Below are positions 16,378 to 30,440 of a stretch of DNA of 30,440 nucleotides, piece after piece; the stretch's first letter is position 1, and each line of letters starts with the position of its first letter. Origin of the DNA: Candidatus Sigynarchaeum calidifontis (lineage in GTDB: Archaea; Asgardarchaeota; Lokiarchaeia; Sigyniarchaeales; Sigyniarchaeaceae). Where the stretch lies: positions 1 to 30,440 of the forward strand of contig JAUQYZ020000165.1 of assembly GCA_030587475.2 (NCBI GenBank). The letters are read 5' to 3'. The position numbers were made by a program, and so were the translations under genes. The notes under the pieces are model-generated. The model ran no database searches. It saw only the letters and a list, made by a program, of their open reading frames with translations, and had not been told where the DNA came from.

Positions 16378-17190
16378 ATGGAGAATGATGTAAAGGAAAG
16401 CAGTTACGAACTCGTGCTCGGCGACGTGCTGGAAACGTTACCCAGATTTCCCGAGAAGTTCAACCTCATCATCGCGGATCCACCATTTGGTCTCGAGTTC
16501 GATAAAAGTAGCCACGAATATGGCGCAGATAATTATATCCTTTACGATGACAAGTTCTCCGGCAATGAATACGAGGAGTTTTCGTTCAAATGGATTTCTA
16601 CTTGTTATGGTGCCCTTAAATCAAACGGGACCATGTACGTGATCAGCGGCTGGACCCGGATAGGTGAAATCCTGAACGCGGTCAAGCGCACGCGGTTCCA
16701 TCTCATCAACCACATCATCTGGCATTTTGGATGGGGCGTGTTCGCCCGCAAGAGATATGTCACAAGCCATTACCACATACTTTTTCTCGCGAAGGACAAG
16801 AATGACTATTGTTTCATCCCGCAATTTTCTAACCCGTACACAAAGCGAAAGGGGGAGAAATATGAAGAGGATGTTTGGTATTGGCCAGAATATAACAGGG
16901 GCAACGACCCTGACCGCGTTTATGGCCATCCATGTCAAATTCCCTTAGCCGTCCTCGAAAAGATCGTGTCAATATCTTCCAAGCCCGGCGACTGGGTGGG
17001 TGATGTCTTTTCCGGGAGTGGCGGGACGATCCTCGCGTGCCGGCGCCTCGGGCGGAACGTGATCGGGTTCGAGAAGAACGAGGCCTACAAGGACGTGATC
17101 AAGCAAAAAGCCAAGTTTGGCGAACGGATCGTCCCGAAAACCGATGTAAAAGCTAAGAAATCGAGCCTCGATGCGTTCATGAAAAGCTAG
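16378..17190 (+). CDS. Beta-class N4C/N6A DNA methyltransferase (MTase A)
   Basis: Catalytic ADPPF precedes IIW, DVW, HPCQIP and the SAM motif DVFSGSGGT, followed by IGFE. Confidence 0.92.
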   Translation: MENDVKESSYELVLGDVLETLPRFPEKFNLIIADPPFGLEFDKSSHEYGADNYILYDDKFSGNEYEEFSFKWISTCYGALKSNGTMYVISGWTRIGEILNAVKRTRFHLINHIIWHFGWGVFARKRYVTSHYHILFLAKDKNDYCFIPQFSNPYTKRKGEKYEEDVWYWPEYNRGNDPDRVYGHPCQIPLAVLEKIVSISSKPGDWVGDVFSGSGGTILACRRLGRNVIGFEKNEAYKDVIKQKAKFGERIVPKTDVKAKKSSLDAFMKS

Positions 17191-17191
17191 A

Positions 17192-18313
17192 TCATTTTTT
17201 TTCCAGGAACTCGTCCAGTGACGAGGTTTTTTTCTTCGAGGCCGAGACCTTGACCTTCTTGAGTCGTTCCTTGACCGCTGGCGATATGATTTTTTCGTCG
17301 AGGAGGCGCGAGAGCACGAGATCCAAGAACTCCTGCTCATCAACGCTTTTTAAACCGAGTGCCCGCGCGGCATCAAGACTTATCGCCAGGACATTCTGCA
17401 AGGCCTTGTATCCCATCGTGACATAGCCATCATCGATCGGCGGGGGGTGCCAAGGCTCCACGACGCGTGCCTTGATCTTGTCGCGGTAATCGGGGTTGAT
17501 CTCGTAACCGATGCCCTTCCGCCTCGTGATCCGGGCGACCTTCAGCGTCGTTCCCGAGCCCACGAACGGGTCGAGCACGGTTTCCCCCTCGACCGTGTGC
17601 ATGCGGATGAGCCGGTAGGGGATGTCCTCGGGAAACGGGGCCCCGTGGCCGTATACGTTCTCGCCCTTGGAATTGATCTTGATGACGGGTTGGATATCGT
17701 CCCAGATGCACCGGACTGCCCAATGTCGCCATTCCTCCTTGGAGAGAAGGTTCTTGTCAAGAACATCCTTGGAGATCTTGCGCGTCTCGCCACGCTTGAC
17801 GAAGGTGTAGACTTGTTCGAACGACGTGTTGGTCGCGATGTTCGTCGGCTTCGGGTAGGAGCCCCACGAGACGTTGTTGACATAGGCCGCCTTGTTCCAG
17901 AATGCCATGCCGCTGAGGAAGCAGTCGTGCTCGCGGAAAAATGCCTGGACATCGTGCATGATGTCGCAGATCACGCGAAAGCCGAACCCGGACTGCTCCG
18001 ACGGGATGGGCAGTGGCTGGATGTTGATCGCGATCTTGCCATTGGGCTGGAGCACCCGGAGGCATTCTTTCCAGACACGGTTGAGCGCGCCGATGTATTC
18101 CTTGTAGGATTGCCCGAAACCGATTTGGTCACCGCCGTAATCACGTACGTTCCAATACGGGGGTGACGTGACGACGAGGGTAACAGATTCCGATTCTACC
18201 GCATCCATGTGTTCCGATGACCCGAAATACACGGTCTGCCCCTCGATCTCCAGCTTGTCCATGGTCTTTGCCTGTCGATGGCTGGTGTGGTTCGCGCTAG
18301 GTATGGTGTCCAT
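17192..18313 (-). CDS. Beta-class DNA methyltransferase, probably N4-cytosine (MTase B)
   Basis: VTSPPYW, HGAPFPEDIPYRLI, VLDPFVGSGTT and IGYEIN. Alternative start at 18262. Confidence 0.92.
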   Translation of the reverse strand: MDTIPSANHTSHRQAKTMDKLEIEGQTVYFGSSEHMDAVESESVTLVVTSPPYWNVRDYGGDQIGFGQSYKEYIGALNRVWKECLRVLQPNGKIAINIQPLPIPSEQSGFGFRVICDIMHDVQAFFREHDCFLSGMAFWNKAAYVNNVSWGSYPKPTNIATNTSFEQVYTFVKRGETRKISKDVLDKNLLSKEEWRHWAVRCIWDDIQPVIKINSKGENVYGHGAPFPEDIPYRLIRMHTVEGETVLDPFVGSGTTLKVARITRRKGIGYEINPDYRDKIKARVVEPWHPPPIDDGYVTMGYKALQNVLAISLDAARALGLKSVDEQEFLDLVLSRLLDEKIISPAVKERLKKVKVSASKKKTSSLDEFLEKK

Positions 18314-19841
18314 TTTGTCGCCGGGGTTCTTGAATCCTTGGAGGAAGACGCCCTCGCGATGGCCGGGATGCTTGCCCCAACCTGGCCTCGATGTCGGGTA
18401 TATATCGCTCGTCGATCTCGAACCCGATCGCCGGCCGGTTCAGCTCCCATGCGGCGGCGATCGTGGTTCCGGACCCGAGGAACGGGTCAACGACGAGCCC
18501 GTCGTGTTTCGATTCCGCCAAGCAGACCTTCACGACTTGCTTCGGATAAATGGCCGGGTGGATCAATCGCGCCCTCTCCCGCGAATTTCCCTTGAGAATG
18601 GGGATGTAATAATCCTGGAGGTACCGGTGACCCTTCGGGTATGAGATCTTGCCGCGAGTAAACCGAAGGATCCACTCGTAATATGGCTTGTACTTGCCCT
18701 TCGCGGGATCGTAGCTGATATCGTATCGCCAGATGATGATGTCCGACAACAACCAAGCCGGAGGCACTAATTTCGCGATCCAGAATGGCGGGATACATTT
18801 TCCACCAGAATAGCTGTTTTTCATGTTGATAAAGGCATCTGCAGAAACGGGATTCATTTTTTCATCGATGACGGCCAGCGTGCGCTTGATCATGCCATGG
18901 TATGCCCCGCGTGGAAGATCGTCCCGGTATCCTTCTTTCCGTGGCGCGACGAGCTTTCCGCTTTTGGGATCCGGCTTGGGCACGTTGAACGGATCGTAGC
19001 CGATGTTGTACGGCGGGCTCGTGACCACGTCATCGATGGACATGTTCACGTGCAATGGTATCCCCGACTGCGCCTCCTGGATGTAATAACGTGCCGGTGG
19101 ATGGTTCCTGGATCCTTGCTTGACAGCGCGCGCGTCTCTTTCGTTTAAATTACCGCTCGTGCTTGTGCCCGAGTCATCCACGTCGATGTGAGCCTCCACA
19201 AACGGATCGGGGTTCCCGGCGGGGACTGCACGGAATCGGCGCTTGAGCTTTCCGACTACGGTTCCGATGCAATCCGCATCCTCACGCGATGACCACGTGT
19301 ACACGGTATCGCCTTCCAATGTGTGGCACTGGATAAGGCGTTGCACCGCTGCCGCCTCGACATGCGTGGCAACGCGAGGGACAGGCATCGGAGCAAGAAG
19401 CGGCCGCTGGAACCCGGCTTTCCCGTCGTGGAGAGGCTCGGAAAAAGACCACACGTTCCCGGGATTCTTGCCGATCGGGTTGTTCCTCGGGTCGGTCTTC
19501 CGGGTATGAGCGATTCGAACCGAATCGATATCATAGGTCGAATCGGGCCAGTTCCAGAAATAAACCAGGCAAAAATTGACGGGCGGATCTTGATCATTGC
19601 TTGCTATCTTCAACAAGATGATATCTCGCAACCGGAAGAATTGATCGACGATCGAAAGATCCACGCCGTGTTGGTAATGGAATTCGGAAAACGCCTTCGA
19701 GTCGAGAGACCCGTCCGGTTTGACAGATGGAATGTAGAATGACGCGACCGTCGCGTGCCGATCCTTGATGATCGACCGCACCTCGCGCGCGTCAGGGTGG
19801 CTACCGGCGGAATCGGGAAGGAGTAACACGAGATCCGTCAT
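18297..19841 (-). CDS. Tandem beta-class DNA methyltransferase: degenerate N-terminal copy + intact C-terminal copy (MTase C)
   Basis: C-half has VVTSPPY, DIIIW, HPAIYP, VVDPFLGSGTT and IGFEID. N-half has LRDII, YDIDSVRI, GKNPGNVW and RLIQCHTLEGDTV but lacks PPY and FxGxG. Start reassigned to ATG 19841. Confidence 0.87.
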   Translation of the reverse strand: MTDLVLLLPDSAGSHPDAREVRSIIKDRHATVASFYIPSVKPDGSLDSKAFSEFHYQHGVDLSIVDQFFRLRDIILLKIASNDQDPPVNFCLVYFWNWPDSTYDIDSVRIAHTRKTDPRNNPIGKNPGNVWSFSEPLHDGKAGFQRPLLAPMPVPRVATHVEAAAVQRLIQCHTLEGDTVYTWSSREDADCIGTVVGKLKRRFRAVPAGNPDPFVEAHIDVDDSGTSTSGNLNERDARAVKQGSRNHPPARYYIQEAQSGIPLHVNMSIDDVVTSPPYNIGYDPFNVPKPDPKSGKLVAPRKEGYRDDLPRGAYHGMIKRTLAVIDEKMNPVSADAFINMKNSYSGGKCIPPFWIAKLVPPAWLLSDIIIWRYDISYDPAKGKYKPYYEWILRFTRGKISYPKGHRYLQDYYIPILKGNSRERARLIHPAIYPKQVVKVCLAESKHDGLVVDPFLGSGTTIAAAWELNRPAIGFEIDERYIPDIEARLGQASRPSRGRLPPRIQEPRRQNGHHT

Positions 19842-19867
19842 TATCGAGATAACCGGATGCCACCGAT

Positions 19868-19954
19868 GTAAAAAAACGCGATGCTTGTTGCGCAGCCAGC
19901 AACATGTTGACGTGGTCAATGTATAAATTCTGCCCACCCGGATCCCTTGACGTG
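19868..19954. promoter_or_regulatory. Divergent promoter between MTases C and D with nested inverted repeats
   Basis: TATAAAT at 19922-19928 (+) and TTTTTTTAC (-) at 19868-19876. Inverted repeats TGTTGC-N7-GCAACA, CAACATGTTG and TTGAC-N3-GTCAA span 19886-19919. Confidence 0.5.
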
Positions 19955-21682
19955 AATAGAAAAACGGCCACCCGCCAGTTTACCGGCGATGCCCGGGTCG
20001 CCGACAAAAACGCCAAAAGGAACCTCGGCCAGTATTATACCGATCCCGCGATCGCCGAGTTCATCGTGTCAAAGCTTGATGCCATTTCGGAAGAAAAGGT
20101 CGTTCTCGATCCTGCATGCGGCGCGGGAGAGTTCCTCTCGAGCTTCTCGAAAGCCCTGGTAAAGGCCATGCGCGAGAGAGGCGCGAGCGAGGCCGACGCT
20201 CGCAAGGCGGTCGCATCGAACGTGTGGGGATTCGACATCGATGCTCTCGCCACGCAGCAATGTACCACGAGGCTCGTGAATGAAGGTTTGGTGGGGTCAG
20301 AGCACGAGCTGCATGTCTACACCATCGATGCGCTAGACGAGCACGTCGACCCGAACACGCGCGTGGTATCCATAATCGATGATTCGATCCACACGAAAAA
20401 ATTTGATTACATCATAGGAAACCCGCCGTTTTTCGTCGTGGACAAGGAGAAAAAGCCGTTTCGCACGATCCTTGGCCTAGCCGAGTACAAGGCAATCGAC
20501 AGCCATAACCTGAACATCGCATCGATGTTCGTGTACAAGTTCATCCACAGGTTAAGGCCAGGGGGGCAGCTCGCCTTCATCCTCCCGCGGTCAGTGCTCC
20601 ACGTTTGCTCGTTCGCGAGCCTCCGGCAGGCAATGTTGAAGGTGAAAATACAATATATATTCGATCTCGGTAAAGCTTTCGAGAATGTTGGCCTTGAACA
20701 ATGTATCATCGTTCTCAAGAATGAGAACAGCGAACACAATGTCGTACATTATGCATTGCTCGGATGCACGAGCAAAGGGATCATCGAGACGGTTTCATAT
20801 GACATTCCACAAGATTATCTCGCAACCACGGCGGATCACGTGTTCGAGGTCTTCAGCGGGGAGAAGCCAGGCCAACCGACGACTTGGGCCGCGTTGAAAG
20901 GCAAGATCGAGAAGCGAGCAGCTGGAAACGACATCATGCAGTATTGCATCGATATTCAGCGCGGCATTGGCTTGCAGCGCGAGGCGAGCAGCACCAGGAT
21001 GGCACCGGGAGATATCGCAGTGATGGGGGGCCGTTCCATTTTTAATTACGGCAAAAAAGGCATCGAAACCTATCGATATCTAGCCGAGAGCCGGATCGTC
21101 AAGGAGAAAATGGCGCGGAAGGAACTAACTAACCTCCGCTCCCCGAAGATCATGCTGCAGAACCTCGTTTCCTCGAAGATCCGCATCGTGGGTTGCTATG
21201 ACGACGAGTTGCAGCGTGCTGGTGATGGGCCCGGGGAAGATCTCTACTTCATGACGTTCGACACGATCACCAACTTGTACCTCGCAGATCAGCGCTATGC
21301 CAGGTTTTTGCTCGCCATTTTGACAAGCGAGCTCGTCACTTGCTTCTTGCGAGACATCGTTTTCGTGCGGGCCAAGCTTACGATCCACCTTGACAAGAAA
21401 TATCTCAAAAAAATTCCCATTCCCCACCCGACCGACTCTCAACTTAGCGAGATAACGAGCGTCGTCAAGGAACTCGAGCGGTTCGCCCTAGATCACCAGA
21501 AAATGGAACCCGTGGGCGAACGCGACGTGCCGAGCTGGGAGGAACCAGGTCATGCGGATTATCCCCAATACGAGCAGCTGATCCGCACGTTGAACAGGCT
21601 CGTGTACAGCCTTTACGGCGTTACCGAAACCGAGCGCCGCTTCATCTCCGGACAGTTGAAGGAATTCGATGATTTCTACTGA
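19952..21682 (+). CDS. Gamma-class N6-adenine DNA methyltransferase, M.TaqI/Eco57I-like with C-terminal TRD (MTase D)
   Basis: GQYYTD, VLDPACGAGEFL, WGFDID, IIGNPPF, AFILP and a TaqI_C-like tail (LLAILTS, YLKKIPIP, LNRLVYSLYG). No nuclease domain. GTG 19952 chosen from TATA spacing. Confidence 0.9.
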   Translation: MNRKTATRQFTGDARVADKNAKRNLGQYYTDPAIAEFIVSKLDAISEEKVVLDPACGAGEFLSSFSKALVKAMRERGASEADARKAVASNVWGFDIDALATQQCTTRLVNEGLVGSEHELHVYTIDALDEHVDPNTRVVSIIDDSIHTKKFDYIIGNPPFFVVDKEKKPFRTILGLAEYKAIDSHNLNIASMFVYKFIHRLRPGGQLAFILPRSVLHVCSFASLRQAMLKVKIQYIFDLGKAFENVGLEQCIIVLKNENSEHNVVHYALLGCTSKGIIETVSYDIPQDYLATTADHVFEVFSGEKPGQPTTWAALKGKIEKRAAGNDIMQYCIDIQRGIGLQREASSTRMAPGDIAVMGGRSIFNYGKKGIETYRYLAESRIVKEKMARKELTNLRSPKIMLQNLVSSKIRIVGCYDDELQRAGDGPGEDLYFMTFDTITNLYLADQRYARFLLAILTSELVTCFLRDIVFVRAKLTIHLDKKYLKKIPIPHPTDSQLSEITSVVKELERFALDHQKMEPVGERDVPSWEEPGHADYPQYEQLIRTLNRLVYSLYGVTETERRFISGQLKEFDDFY

Positions 21683-27619: not shown

Positions 27620-30440
27620 ATGGCAACGCCCTTCGATAATATCGATGCGCTGAAATCCTTTCTACAAAGCAAAGGTGTTACTTGCATCGACGACATATCG
27701 GAACCAGAATTCAAGGGATTGACCGCCCATGTCGATGCTTTTGGAAGCACCGTGCATTTTATCTTCCATGATACCTTTTCCAAGAAAATGAAAAGATACA
27801 TCCCGAATCTCGTGCGCGTGAGTTTTGAGGGAACGTTATACGTTTATAAAGAAAACGACGAGACGGTTTACAAGAAATTTAATATTGCTTCGTCCAGATG
27901 CCTGGCACAGTTCCTTTCGAATTTCACGTATGAAGGAGAACGGCGCTCTGGCCATTTGAGCGCGCTGTATAATTTGGAGGATCTCCGTGCCCGGTACTAT
28001 GTCCAGTATCTGGAAATTGCAGAATCACTGATCTCGCGCCTCGCGAGCAAATTGACTACCACGCGGAAACAAGAAATCGAGGAATTCGTGCACGTCGTTC
28101 TCGAACGTATTATGTTTCTAGCGTTCTTGGAGAAAATCAATGGTTTCCCGCAAGAAGTGCTAATATTTCAGCCTTATTTGCCAGGAAACTATTATGAACT
28201 TGTACTAGTCCCCGTCATGTTCTGGTTCCGCGAACCCCACGTTATCGGCACGAATTTACTCGTGAACGGGAAAGACTATGGAGGGATGTTCAAGCTCCTT
28301 CCTTTCTTGAATACAAGTCTCTTCCGGGAGGTCGCTTTCGAAAGGGTGCACGTCACGCCGTGGATTCAATACGACGCCACGAAAGGAAACCTGAGCGTTC
28401 ACCTCCCCGCCGAAATTATATCGAACGAGGACATGACTGAATTGTTCATACTTGCTGGAAAAAATGGCAGCGCTTCAATACCACGATTTTCATTGGTTGC
28501 CGGGGAAAATTCAACCGAGGAGGGCATTAATCCAGAGATTCTAGGTTACATCTTCGAACAAGGGCTGGATCGGAACGCGTTTGGCGCGTTCTACACGCCC
28601 CGGGGGGTAACCTCTCGAATGGTGAAGACGAGCCTCATGAACTGGCTCTGGCAATGGCTTCCCGCGGACGTGCAATGCAAGCTCGTGGAGCTCTCCAGCA
28701 CCACTTCACGGCGGCTCCAAGCCGATTATCCCCCCGGTGCGGATCTCCAAGCCGCTTGCGCCGAGAAGCTGGAACGCGCGATATACAATCAAGACGAGGT
28801 GCCGAAAGATCTCGCCGACGCCGTGAAACGCGTTGTCTTGGAAAAAATAAAGAATGTAAAGGTTATCGACACGTCATGTGGTTCCGGGGCATTTCTCCTG
28901 GCTATGTTCAACGAGTTAATGGCACTATACATGAATTGTAGCCCGTCCATCCCGAGCAAGAAAGCCATGTACGATCAAGCGATTTCCATTATCGTCAACA
29001 ACTTGTTCGGCGTGGACATCCTAGCCGAGGCCACGGAAAAAGCGATCACGCGACTCTGGCTCGCGGCCACAGAAAAATGTCCCGATATCAAGGATCTCAA
29101 GCCTTTTCAGGACCTAGATTTCAAGATCTACAAGGGAAACGCGATCATCGGATATGCAAACCGCCCCCTTGCCCAGCACACCCTGGCTGTCGCTCCCCTG
29201 GTACACGACGTGCATCCCCCGTTAATGAATAATTGCACCAGGAACATGATGATCGACAAGGATCTCCGTGAATACAATGCCAGGTTCAATGATGCAATCT
29301 ATCAGCTCGTCATCGCCAAGAGAAAAGCGGTTTTCGATTCGATCAAGCAATCATTCATAGATAGCTGTCAAACCGGGGATAATGTAGCTGCGAAACGAAT
29401 TTTATCGAAAATTCGCAGTAACCCGGCAGAGAACATCGGGCATTTGCTGACCCCGGTGGAGATGGATCTGGTTTTCGAACGTGTCAAGATACCGTTCAAG
29501 TTTTCCGACCCGTATGGGCACCTCTCGCCGTTGGAAAAGAAACGGATGCTCGGCATCAAATACAAGAACCACGATGTCGATCCTGTCATCCTCAGGTGTT
29601 TCGAATGGATGAACCCGTTCCATTGGGCATCCTTCTTCGATGCCAACGTGTTCCCGGCGGCCAAGTTCGATATCCTTATCGGCAATCCCCCCTACGAGGG
29701 TGCCCGTAAGGAATCCACGCGTGACGCCGCGATGCCAATCTGGAATCGGCTGCAGCGGCTGTTCATCATCGGCCTTCAAGAACAAGGTATTTACAAGCGG
29801 ATCACGGGCGCGTGGGACTTGTGCATGCCGTTCGTCGAGAGGGCATTCGATCTCGTGAATGAAAGCGGCGTGATTTCATTGCTCTTGCCGAAATCCTTTG
29901 GCACGACCGAGTACACCAACATGCTACGGGAGCACATCTCCAACCAGCACTTGATGATCCAGATAACCAAGTTCGACCCGAAAGTTTCCTTGTTCCACCG
30001 GTTCGACAGCGCGACACGGCGGATGGTGCACGTCGGCATCCAGAACATCATCTTCACCATGCGGAATCGCCCGATCGAGGACAAGCGCCACGCCGTCATC
30101 GAATACTTTACAGATGATCTCGATGACCGGGCACGAGACACACCAGAAATCCGAACCGATTACGAATTGCAATGCCACCCCTTTGCAAAAGACAAGCTAG
30201 ATGGTATACCACTAAAATTCCTGTGCTGTATCGTCAAGGGAATGCAAGTTACCACCAAGGCGGATGATGCAAGGTTCCGGCGAGCTTTCACGCGTGATGA
30301 CATCGTCAGCGCGACCCGGGATGCTATTCACTCGATGCCATTGTATTCAACAAGACATGTTGCACCGTTCAACGTCGTCGGGAATGCATGGCTTGAATGG
30401 GGAACGGACCGGGTACCGGCACGGCTCCACCGGAAGCGGC
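27620..30440 (+). CDS. Large Eco57I/type IIG-like N6-adenine DNA methyltransferase (runs off right edge, >940 aa)
   Basis: Not in the ORF track. Manual translation from ATG 27620 is open to the end: ERIMFLAFLEK, LPFLNTSLF, INPEILGYIFE, GAFYTP, VIDTSCGSGAFL, NNLFGVDI, RLWL, IYKGNA, PFHW, FDILIGNPPY, DLCMPFVERA and WLEWGTDR. Confidence 0.9.
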   Translation, partial: MATPFDNIDALKSFLQSKGVTCIDDISEPEFKGLTAHVDAFGSTVHFIFHDTFSKKMKRYIPNLVRVSFEGTLYVYKENDETVYKKFNIASSRCLAQFLSNFTYEGERRSGHLSALYNLEDLRARYYVQYLEIAESLISRLASKLTTTRKQEIEEFVHVVLERIMFLAFLEKINGFPQEVLIFQPYLPGNYYELVLVPVMFWFREPHVIGTNLLVNGKDYGGMFKLLPFLNTSLFREVAFERVHVTPWIQYDATKGNLSVHLPAEIISNEDMTELFILAGKNGSASIPRFSLVAGENSTEEGINPEILGYIFEQGLDRNAFGAFYTPRGVTSRMVKTSLMNWLWQWLPADVQCKLVELSSTTSRRLQADYPPGADLQAACAEKLERAIYNQDEVPKDLADAVKRVVLEKIKNVKVIDTSCGSGAFLLAMFNELMALYMNCSPSIPSKKAMYDQAISIIVNNLFGVDILAEATEKAITRLWLAATEKCPDIKDLKPFQDLDFKIYKGNAIIGYANRPLAQHTLAVAPLVHDVHPPLMNNCTRNMMIDKDLREYNARFNDAIYQLVIAKRKAVFDSIKQSFIDSCQTGDNVAAKRILSKIRSNPAENIGHLLTPVEMDLVFERVKIPFKFSDPYGHLSPLEKKRMLGIKYKNHDVDPVILRCFEWMNPFHWASFFDANVFPAAKFDILIGNPPYEGARKESTRDAAMPIWNRLQRLFIIGLQEQGIYKRITGAWDLCMPFVERAFDLVNESGVISLLLPKSFGTTEYTNMLREHISNQHLMIQITKFDPKVSLFHRFDSATRRMVHVGIQNIIFTMRNRPIEDKRHAVIEYFTDDLDDRARDTPEIRTDYELQCHPFAKDKLDGIPLKFLCCIVKGMQVTTKADDARFRRAFTRDDIVSATRDAIHSMPLYSTRHVAPFNVVGNAWLEWGTDRVPARLHRKR

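Follow-up and report, generated by a model that had tools for sequence, protein, structure and literature searches.

A single-chain fusion of a degenerate and a presumably active class-β methyltransferase domain in an Asgard archaeon, with a predicted pseudo-heterodimeric packing

We analyzed a 30,440-nucleotide stretch of the Asgard archaeon Candidatus Sigynarchaeum calidifontis (contig JAUQYZ020000165.1, positions 1-30,440; hereafter the window), and in particular a gene on its reverse strand at 18297-19841, which encodes a 514-residue fusion of a dead N-terminal and a presumably active C-terminal class-β methyltransferase (MTase) domain. The frame opens with ATG at 19841 and is free of stop codons. 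The 17 full-length close homologues are of similar size (491-514 residues), and all 17 start with MTD; a longer frame from a GTG codon at 19937 (546 residues) is thus not the gene, and its extension is unconserved and would overlap the divergent neighbouring gene. Pfam recognizes a sole domain in the protein, N6_N4_Mtase (PF01555), at residues 270-484 with 94 bits. The AlphaFold2 model of the full-length chain has a predicted template-modelling score (pTM) of 0.77, and the chain falls into three parts. The N-half (residues 1-210; 19212-19841) is a degenerate class-β MTase fold that lacks the catalytic and S-adenosylmethionine (SAM) motifs, as judged from profile, fold and the ratio of nonsynonymous to synonymous substitution rates (dN/dS). 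The linker (residues 211-255; 19077-19211) is weakly conserved and variable in the alignment, and its predicted local distance difference test score (pLDDT) drops below 50 at residues 225-237. The C-half (residues 256-490; 18372-19076) is a complete, presumably active class-β MTase of the N4CMT type, as judged from its PF01555 match, its N4CMT profile match and dN/dS. The polar linker that the initial annotation of this gene had described between the halves is present (residues about 211-255, low pLDDT), and the strings on which it had relied are all in place: DLVLLLPDS at residues 3-11, LRDII at 71-75, YDIDSVRI at 103-110, NPIGKNPGNVW at 121-131, RLIQCHTLEGDTV at 168-180 and YTWSSRED at 181-188.

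The C-half is readily classified. Its score of 94 bits lies far above the PF01555 cut-off of 26.7, and the match covers model positions 2-219 of 221. The catalytic motif IV, SPPY (residues 275-278; 19008-19019), and the SAM-binding motif I, DPFLGSGTT (residues 452-460; 18462-18488), are both invariant in the family according to alignment and motif scan. They follow the β order, with motif IV N-terminal to the FxGxG of motif I, and the SAM-contact residues are present. In this class, a motif IV of the SPPY form favours N4-methylcytosine (m4C) as the product. When a profile of the 17 C-halves was compared with PDB sequences, the best match was the rotifer N4CMT, aligned end to end with an expect value (E) of 3e-28; the next best was CcrM (E 9e-12), matched over its C-terminal part only. 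The sinefungin contacts of N4CMT are D88, H253 and D301 (PMC10406627), which are equivalent to E256, H428 and E475 of the C-half, and position 256 is an aspartate in at least 90% of members. The register of this alignment was verified against the residue numbers given in PMC10406627. With an SPP(Y/F) motif IV and a proven m4C enzyme as its closest PDB relative, the C-half falls by sequence in the N4-cytosine-specific subgroup (N4CMT/M.PvuII-like). Since SPPY, FxGxG and the three N4CMT SAM-contact positions are kept, its sequence suggests an active enzyme that most likely makes m4C in DNA. We also observed an invariant loop, GGxCxPPFW, at residues 346-354 of P0001 (window about 18780-18806), which reads NPPF or DPPF in several members. 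This loop is a look-alike of motif IV, and it aligns with the N4CMT loop that holds the interface residue R172, not with the catalytic site.

The N-half was expected from the initial annotation to keep the scaffold of a β-class MTase, and its resemblance to this class goes beyond chance by a profile comparison and by two independent structure searches. First, a profile of 17 N-halves against 177,635 PDB sequences found M.MboIIA (E 1e-4; profile positions 89-202 on chain residues 118-237) and M.RsrI (E 4.5e-3). The PF01555 model matches 11 of the 17 N-halves below threshold; the window N-half scores 11.8 bits against the cut-off of 26.7, and the strongest match of any family member has E 1.6e-4. 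Second, with the N-half modelled by AlphaFold2 (pLDDT 74), all top Foldseek matches are β MTases, with E from 1.4e-7 to 4e-4: M.RsrI, M.MboIIA, M.BceJIV, M1.HpyAVI, N4CMT, M.PvuII, TTHA0409 and CcrM. Third, in a VIA search, which is independent of Foldseek, the top 16 chains are all class-β or MT-A70 enzymes (Z 10.0-7.3, 129-165 residues aligned). The best of them has a Z of 10.0 and a root-mean-square deviation of 4.6 over 159 aligned residues, and unrelated folds begin at Z 6.2. The predicted N-half has the seven-stranded MTase fold with β-class topology, so the possibility that it lacks an MTase fold did not hold in these searches of the predicted structure. The most conserved N-half stretch, WNWPDSTYDIDxVR...TDPRNNPxGKNPGNVWxF (residues 96-133; 19443-19556), was delimited by invariant columns and is a loop of the target recognition domain (TRD) region that appears to be inherited from canonical MTases. 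Its motif recurs in M.RsrI, in a Nitrosopumilus MTase, where it reads NPKGKNPGNVW, and in the canonical DPPY enzyme P0030. The last of these, a protein of 256 residues found by phmmer in the full library, carries DEVRIPH followed by PDKRNNPIGRNPTDVW, near-identical to the top-conserved N-half motif.

To analyze how the two halves may be arranged, we co-folded them as separate chains with ESMFold2, each with its own family alignment. The interaction prediction score from aligned errors (ipSAE) is 0.87, and the best of three controls gives 0.00. Of 80 solved complexes, 58 reach this mark, as do 2 of 110 mismatched pairs. At least 76% of contacts recur between runs, with a partner pLDDT of at least 77. 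On the N-half, the predicted interface consists of a β-hairpin, FRLRDIILLK...NFCLVYFWNWP (residues 69-99; 19545-19637), which contributes residues 70-76, 78, 86-90, 95 and 99, and of residues 121 and 125-130 of the conserved loop. On the C-half, the N-half is predicted to be held by a hairpin at the canonical dimer surface (residues 364-397; 18651-18752), which includes the invariant Y384. In the N4CMT homodimer, the interface is formed by R172, E186, I191, D194, the Phe206 'tenon', R207, W215, F229, L234 and E236 (PMC10406627). Eight of these ten positions map onto the predicted C-half interface, compared with an expectation of 20%, and the 'tenon' Phe206 corresponds to Y384. The initial annotation had suggested a search for an intramolecular interface similar to that of other β-class dimers, and such an interface is predicted in silico by both the co-fold and the mapping of the N4CMT interface.

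The main alternative to this arrangement is an N-half that acts as an accessory DNA-binding or regulatory domain away from the dimer surface, while the C-halves homodimerize among themselves, as in ordinary β-class enzymes. Extra domains are common in β MTases, such as the C-terminal domain of CcrM (PMC7544214), the interface described above is a predicted one, and the conserved residues of the C-half are not specially enriched there (48% versus 47%). However, the co-fold sets the N-half on eight of the ten canonical positions, and the controls stay at 0.00. The N-half also uses its own equivalent hairpin, which produces a pseudo-twofold arrangement, and its conserved residues are over-represented at the interface (42% versus 21%, p 0.005). 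We therefore regard the accessory-domain arrangement as unlikely.

The losses at the former active site of the N-half are extensive. The chain opens at the motif IV strand (TDLVLLL). At the motif IV position, DLVLLLPDS (19809-19835, reverse strand), the strand is kept and (D/N/S)PP(Y/F) is absent; the DLVLLL strand and PDS take the place of the strand and DPPY in the structural matches, with model residue 1 lying on residue 23 of M.MboIIA. The residues that follow the strand (PDSAGS in the window) vary in the family, as residues 9-15 do in general. The motif I position, DTVYTWSSREDAD (19272-19310, reverse strand), lacks FxGxG; in the hidden Markov model alignment, the N-half TVYTWSSRED lies on LVLDCFMGSGTT of M.MboIIA. 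The pattern D.F.G.G[TS] occurs in none of the 24 full-length N-halves that were scanned for motifs. Each of these 24 members has exactly one catalytic motif IV and a single motif I, and both are located in the C-half; the loss thus predates the diversification of the family, and the dead N-half that the initial annotation had read from one sequence proves to be a property of all 24. In addition, and likewise in all 24 members, the acidic residue that ends strand β2 (motif II) has no conserved counterpart, the consensus being I-P-x-G, and the adenine-binding N-terminal segment, which holds Asp88 in N4CMT, is absent because nothing of the fold precedes the motif IV strand.

A ligand-binding or catalytic role that survives in the N-half through non-canonical residues, such as sensing of SAM or S-adenosylhomocysteine or an unusual second methyl transfer, would fit with the purifying selection on this half and with its invariant polar residues D117, R119, N120, N121, K125, N126, N129, R168, H173, D178 and R201. 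Against this role, motif IV, motif I and the β2 acid are without conserved counterparts, the adenine-binding segment is missing and the positions of the former pocket are variable across the family. We consider such a role decidedly improbable.

The selection on the N-half was estimated by the pairwise method of Nei and Gojobori (NG86), with the window gene and four orthologues from Asgard archaea aligned by codon (ten pairs). The dN/dS values are 0.17-0.40 for the N-half and 0.10-0.20 for the C-half. For the linker they are 0.21-0.62, mostly 0.37-0.62, in the nine pairs with measurable dS. The TRD-region loop (residues 100-160) has values of 0.09-0.19 in the closest pairs and up to 0.63 in pairs with the orthologue L046. 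Neutral evolution of the N-half does not hold; these values indicate purifying selection. The N-half has 33 invariant columns, with L71 and I74 among them, across sequences down to 35% identity. Nor is the fusion unique to this assembly, as at least 24 full-length proteins were found in several archaeal lineages. The idea that the N-half is a functionless relic, or the fusion an artefact of assembly or gene calling, could draw on the lost catalytic motifs and on the 1.5 to 2.5 times faster evolution of the N-half relative to the C-half, but it is already largely refuted and hardly credible in view of an N-half dN/dS that is well below 1 and below that of the linker in most pairs, the invariant columns, the intact frame and the recurrence of the architecture in independent JGI, ENA, NCBI and Logan assemblies and in different archaeal lineages.

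The distribution of the fusion is rare and patchy. Among 400 Asgard genomes, three carry the N-half, and these three belong to the window's own family; it is also present in a Halococcoides metagenome-assembled genome and in metagenomic contigs. One contig, WJJB01000483.1 (L003, G282:C425), is labelled Candidatus Bathyarchaeota, and the genome search places its genome in the Asgard family of the window. The N-half had no match among PLSDB plasmids or INPHARED phages, and the IMG/VR search returned only distant matches limited to the C-half. A stand-alone N-half was not found, in that no protein shorter than 282 residues matched at E≤1e-3; short matches of 75-216 residues in the representative search were set aside, as they look like truncated calls. 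On the side of the C-half, matches of at least 47% identity and less than 400 residues are fragments or lie on contigs of at most 1.4 kb. The only full-size close match, P0028 (453 residues), is itself a fusion, and no genuine stand-alone enzyme exceeds about 35% identity. Homologues rank in the same order of identity to the window protein in both halves, as expected of one old fusion. We rejected a tandem (internal) duplication as the source of the two halves: BLASTP finds no match between them, hhalign of the half-alignments gives a probability of 0.1, at an effective number of sequences (Neff) of only 2.7, and their nearest relatives differ. Because the relatives differ and the halves are unmatched by profile, the gene is better described as a fusion of two β-class genes, and the comparisons point to different β lineages, RsrI/MboIIA/P0030-like for the N-half and N4CMT-like for the C-half. 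The window's own genome (G000, 5 Mb) has 30 PF01555 matches, and several of its long frames carry half-matches or halves that are far apart (for example C234:6926-18456, C62:54287-55099 and C209:26260-27885); the same organism may hold other unusual or degenerate β-class architectures.

Regarding the neighbourhood, the fusion lies within a block of four methylase genes. Downstream on the same strand is an SPPY β-class MTase (17192-18313), a conserved neighbour in the Asgard clade. Its 373-residue open reading frame from 18313 overlaps the stop of the fusion by 17 nt; the start is probably the Met at 18262, since homologues have 356-358 residues, and this start would leave a gap of 34 nt. A divergent γ-class N6-adenine MTase (N6_Mtase/Eco57I/TaqI_C; 19904-21682, forward strand) is likewise a conserved neighbour in this clade, and a third β-class MTase, with DPPF (16378-17190, forward strand), completes the conserved cluster in convergent orientation. 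Neither β-class neighbour resembles the N-half closely: BLASTP against the 373-residue MTase matched only an RLIxxHTxEGxTV stretch, and hhalign against the 270-residue MTase gave a weak alignment of the motif X-I region only (E 0.056). The block of γ-class MTase, fusion, SPPY β MTase and DPPF β MTase is syntenic in Asgard contigs (window 16378-21682, L046 3749-9005, L045 5008-10658 and L043 1038-5495), and in L046 it is followed, as in the window, by genes for a 172-residue protein of unknown family, an AAA_5 protein and a 750-residue protein. No recognizable restriction endonuclease was matched in the window's cluster by Pfam, NCBIfam or PADLOC models. PADLOC gave only generic Type II or orphan MTase models, on the C-half, and none on the neighbouring 178-residue, AAA_5 and 790-residue proteins; the NCBIfam matches are all far below their cut-offs. 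We also noted a fifth methylase-like gene of the Eco57I/MmeI type 6 kb downstream (27620-30439, forward strand; more than 940 residues), which runs off the window and is possibly a Type IIG/IIL fusion.

The haloarchaeal clade has a different setting. There the fusion (L048 11487-13001, L049 2005-3552 and L050 1962-3470, all on the reverse strand) always faces, in convergent orientation, the gene of a conserved protein that has about 500 residues and is 42% identical between L048 and L049; next come a UvrD-helicase/PD-(D/E)xK pair and two TBP genes. At the Halococcoides locus (L002), the frame of the corresponding protein seems to be split into 344 and 189 residues. The protein of about 500 residues belongs to no Pfam, NCBIfam or PADLOC family, and as a query it found no counterpart in the genome of the window (89% complete). 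It could be a restriction partner or a partner of another kind.

We compared the fusion with known systems in which MTase domains are paired. Class-β enzymes are described as obligate homo- or heterodimers with a division of labour, established for the protomers of EcoP15I and CcrM, and MettL14 and MTA9 as eroded partners, in a review that makes no mention of a single-chain version (PMC7544214). The background from which the initial annotation had argued, β-class dimers with METTL14 as an eroded partner, agrees with this account. The homodimeric N4CMT, CcrM, M.MboIIA, M.RsrI, M1.HpyAVI, M.PvuII and M.EcoP15I Mod2 share the fold and motif order of both halves. These enzymes consist of a pair of identical chains and have two potential active sites, whereas the fusion has its second protomer hard-wired into the chain, and this protomer is non-identical and dead. 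METTL3-METTL14, which writes N6-methyladenine (m6A) in RNA, and the ciliate MTA1-MTA9/AMT1, which writes 6mA in DNA, likewise join an active and an eroded domain through the canonical dimer surface, which is predicted for the fusion; motif IV is degenerate in their dead partner, which is required to provide a scaffold or to bind nucleic acid (PMC7544214). However, these are separate polypeptides of one MT-A70 family, and here one chain joins two prokaryotic PF01555 lineages with a product that, from its sequence motifs, is likely DNA m4C rather than m6A. The MT-A70 model gave no match at E≤1 with the whole protein or at E≤10 with the N-halves, and METTL3-METTL14/MTA-type complexes appear in the N-half fold search at Z 8.5-5.8, below the bacterial β MTases. 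Thus, the METTL3/METTL14 likeness that had been proposed holds for the active/inactive logic and not for membership of the MT-A70 family; the protein is a PF01555 member through its C-half, and the N-half represents a degenerate branch of this superfamily.

Two further systems have both domains in one chain. PRMT7, and probably PRMT9, also carries tandem MTase domains of which one is dead yet required, in a pseudodimer that mimics a homodimer (PMC10908127). PRMT7 belongs to another MTase class, acts on a protein substrate and has a C-terminal dead domain that arose by duplication, whereas the dead domain here is N-terminal and of a different lineage; by analogy, the likeness is one of architecture and not of shared ancestry. 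The fusion has two homologous MTase domains, one of them without catalytic motifs, and their packing as a pseudodimer is predicted. Type IIS enzymes of the M.FokI type have two active MTase domains per chain, each of which methylates one strand. Unlike in these enzymes, the catalytic motifs of the fusion are in one domain only. We found no report of a single-chain dead-plus-active β-class DNA MTase in the open-access literature.

Fold, selection, conservation and predicted interface support in silico the single-chain pseudo-heterodimer that the initial annotation had proposed, and on these models we consider it likely that the gene product is such an arrangement of two class-β amino-MTase domains. 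The C-terminal domain (about 256-490) would be the enzyme. The N-terminal domain (1 to about 210), which probably derives from an RsrI/MboIIA-like lineage, would have been stripped of SAM binding and base flipping and would retain the core fold, the dimerization hairpin and the TRD-region loop. It would sit on the surface of the C-domain that homodimeric relatives give to the second subunit, and the chain would therefore be a 1:1 'dimer' that is permanent and has a single active site. Dimerization has been argued to be necessary in class β, since each active site is directed towards the DNA-binding part of the partner subunit (PMC7544214, 2020), and the second protomer is thought to complete this facing DNA-binding surface. 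On this view, the dead half would be that second protomer; it would act as a scaffold and would probably take part in contacting the DNA, and the chances that it also contributes to sequence reading are about even. The initial annotation had also suggested that the substrates may be asymmetric, hemimethylated or single-stranded.

Several points weigh against this reading, in addition to the lack of enrichment of conserved C-half residues at the interface. Class-β homodimers have already been solved and are in the PDB, so the co-fold shows likeness to known dimers and is not proof of binding, and its pass may reflect the memory of the predictor. The models are moderately confident (mean pLDDT 72-74), and the conserved N-half loop at residues 110-152 is modelled at pLDDT below 50. 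The motif of this loop is common to enzymes of different specificity (RsrI, MboIIA and P0030), and the loop may have a structural role instead of reading sequence. With dS at 0.4-1.4 in the pairs used, the dN/dS values are approximate. Lastly, the link of SPPY to m4C is only a rule of thumb.

A broader proposal, which we hold at somewhat less than even confidence, is that the fusion is an independent archaeal invention of the METTL3-METTL14/MTA1-MTA9 principle, in which two different β-class DNA methylases were fused and one was then stripped of catalysis and kept as a hard-wired recognition and clamping protomer. The protein would then be obligately monomeric and have a single active site, it would methylate one strand per binding event, and its specificity would lie partly in the dead paralogue. 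If true, this would prove, for the first time from a natural example, that class-β enzymes need their second protomer for something besides catalysis. The need for a dimer is hard to test in most homodimers, because both subunits are identical; a chain with one permanently dead yet conserved 'subunit' would separate catalysis from scaffolding and DNA contact genetically, and would provide a monomeric, asymmetric β-class enzyme for structural work. The N-terminal region of about 210 residues, currently invisible to Pfam, could receive a definition of its own as an MTase-like domain that has degenerated. In summary, the active/inactive pairing known from the eukaryotic m6A writers and PRMT7 would also have arisen in archaea, through fusion and not through duplication.

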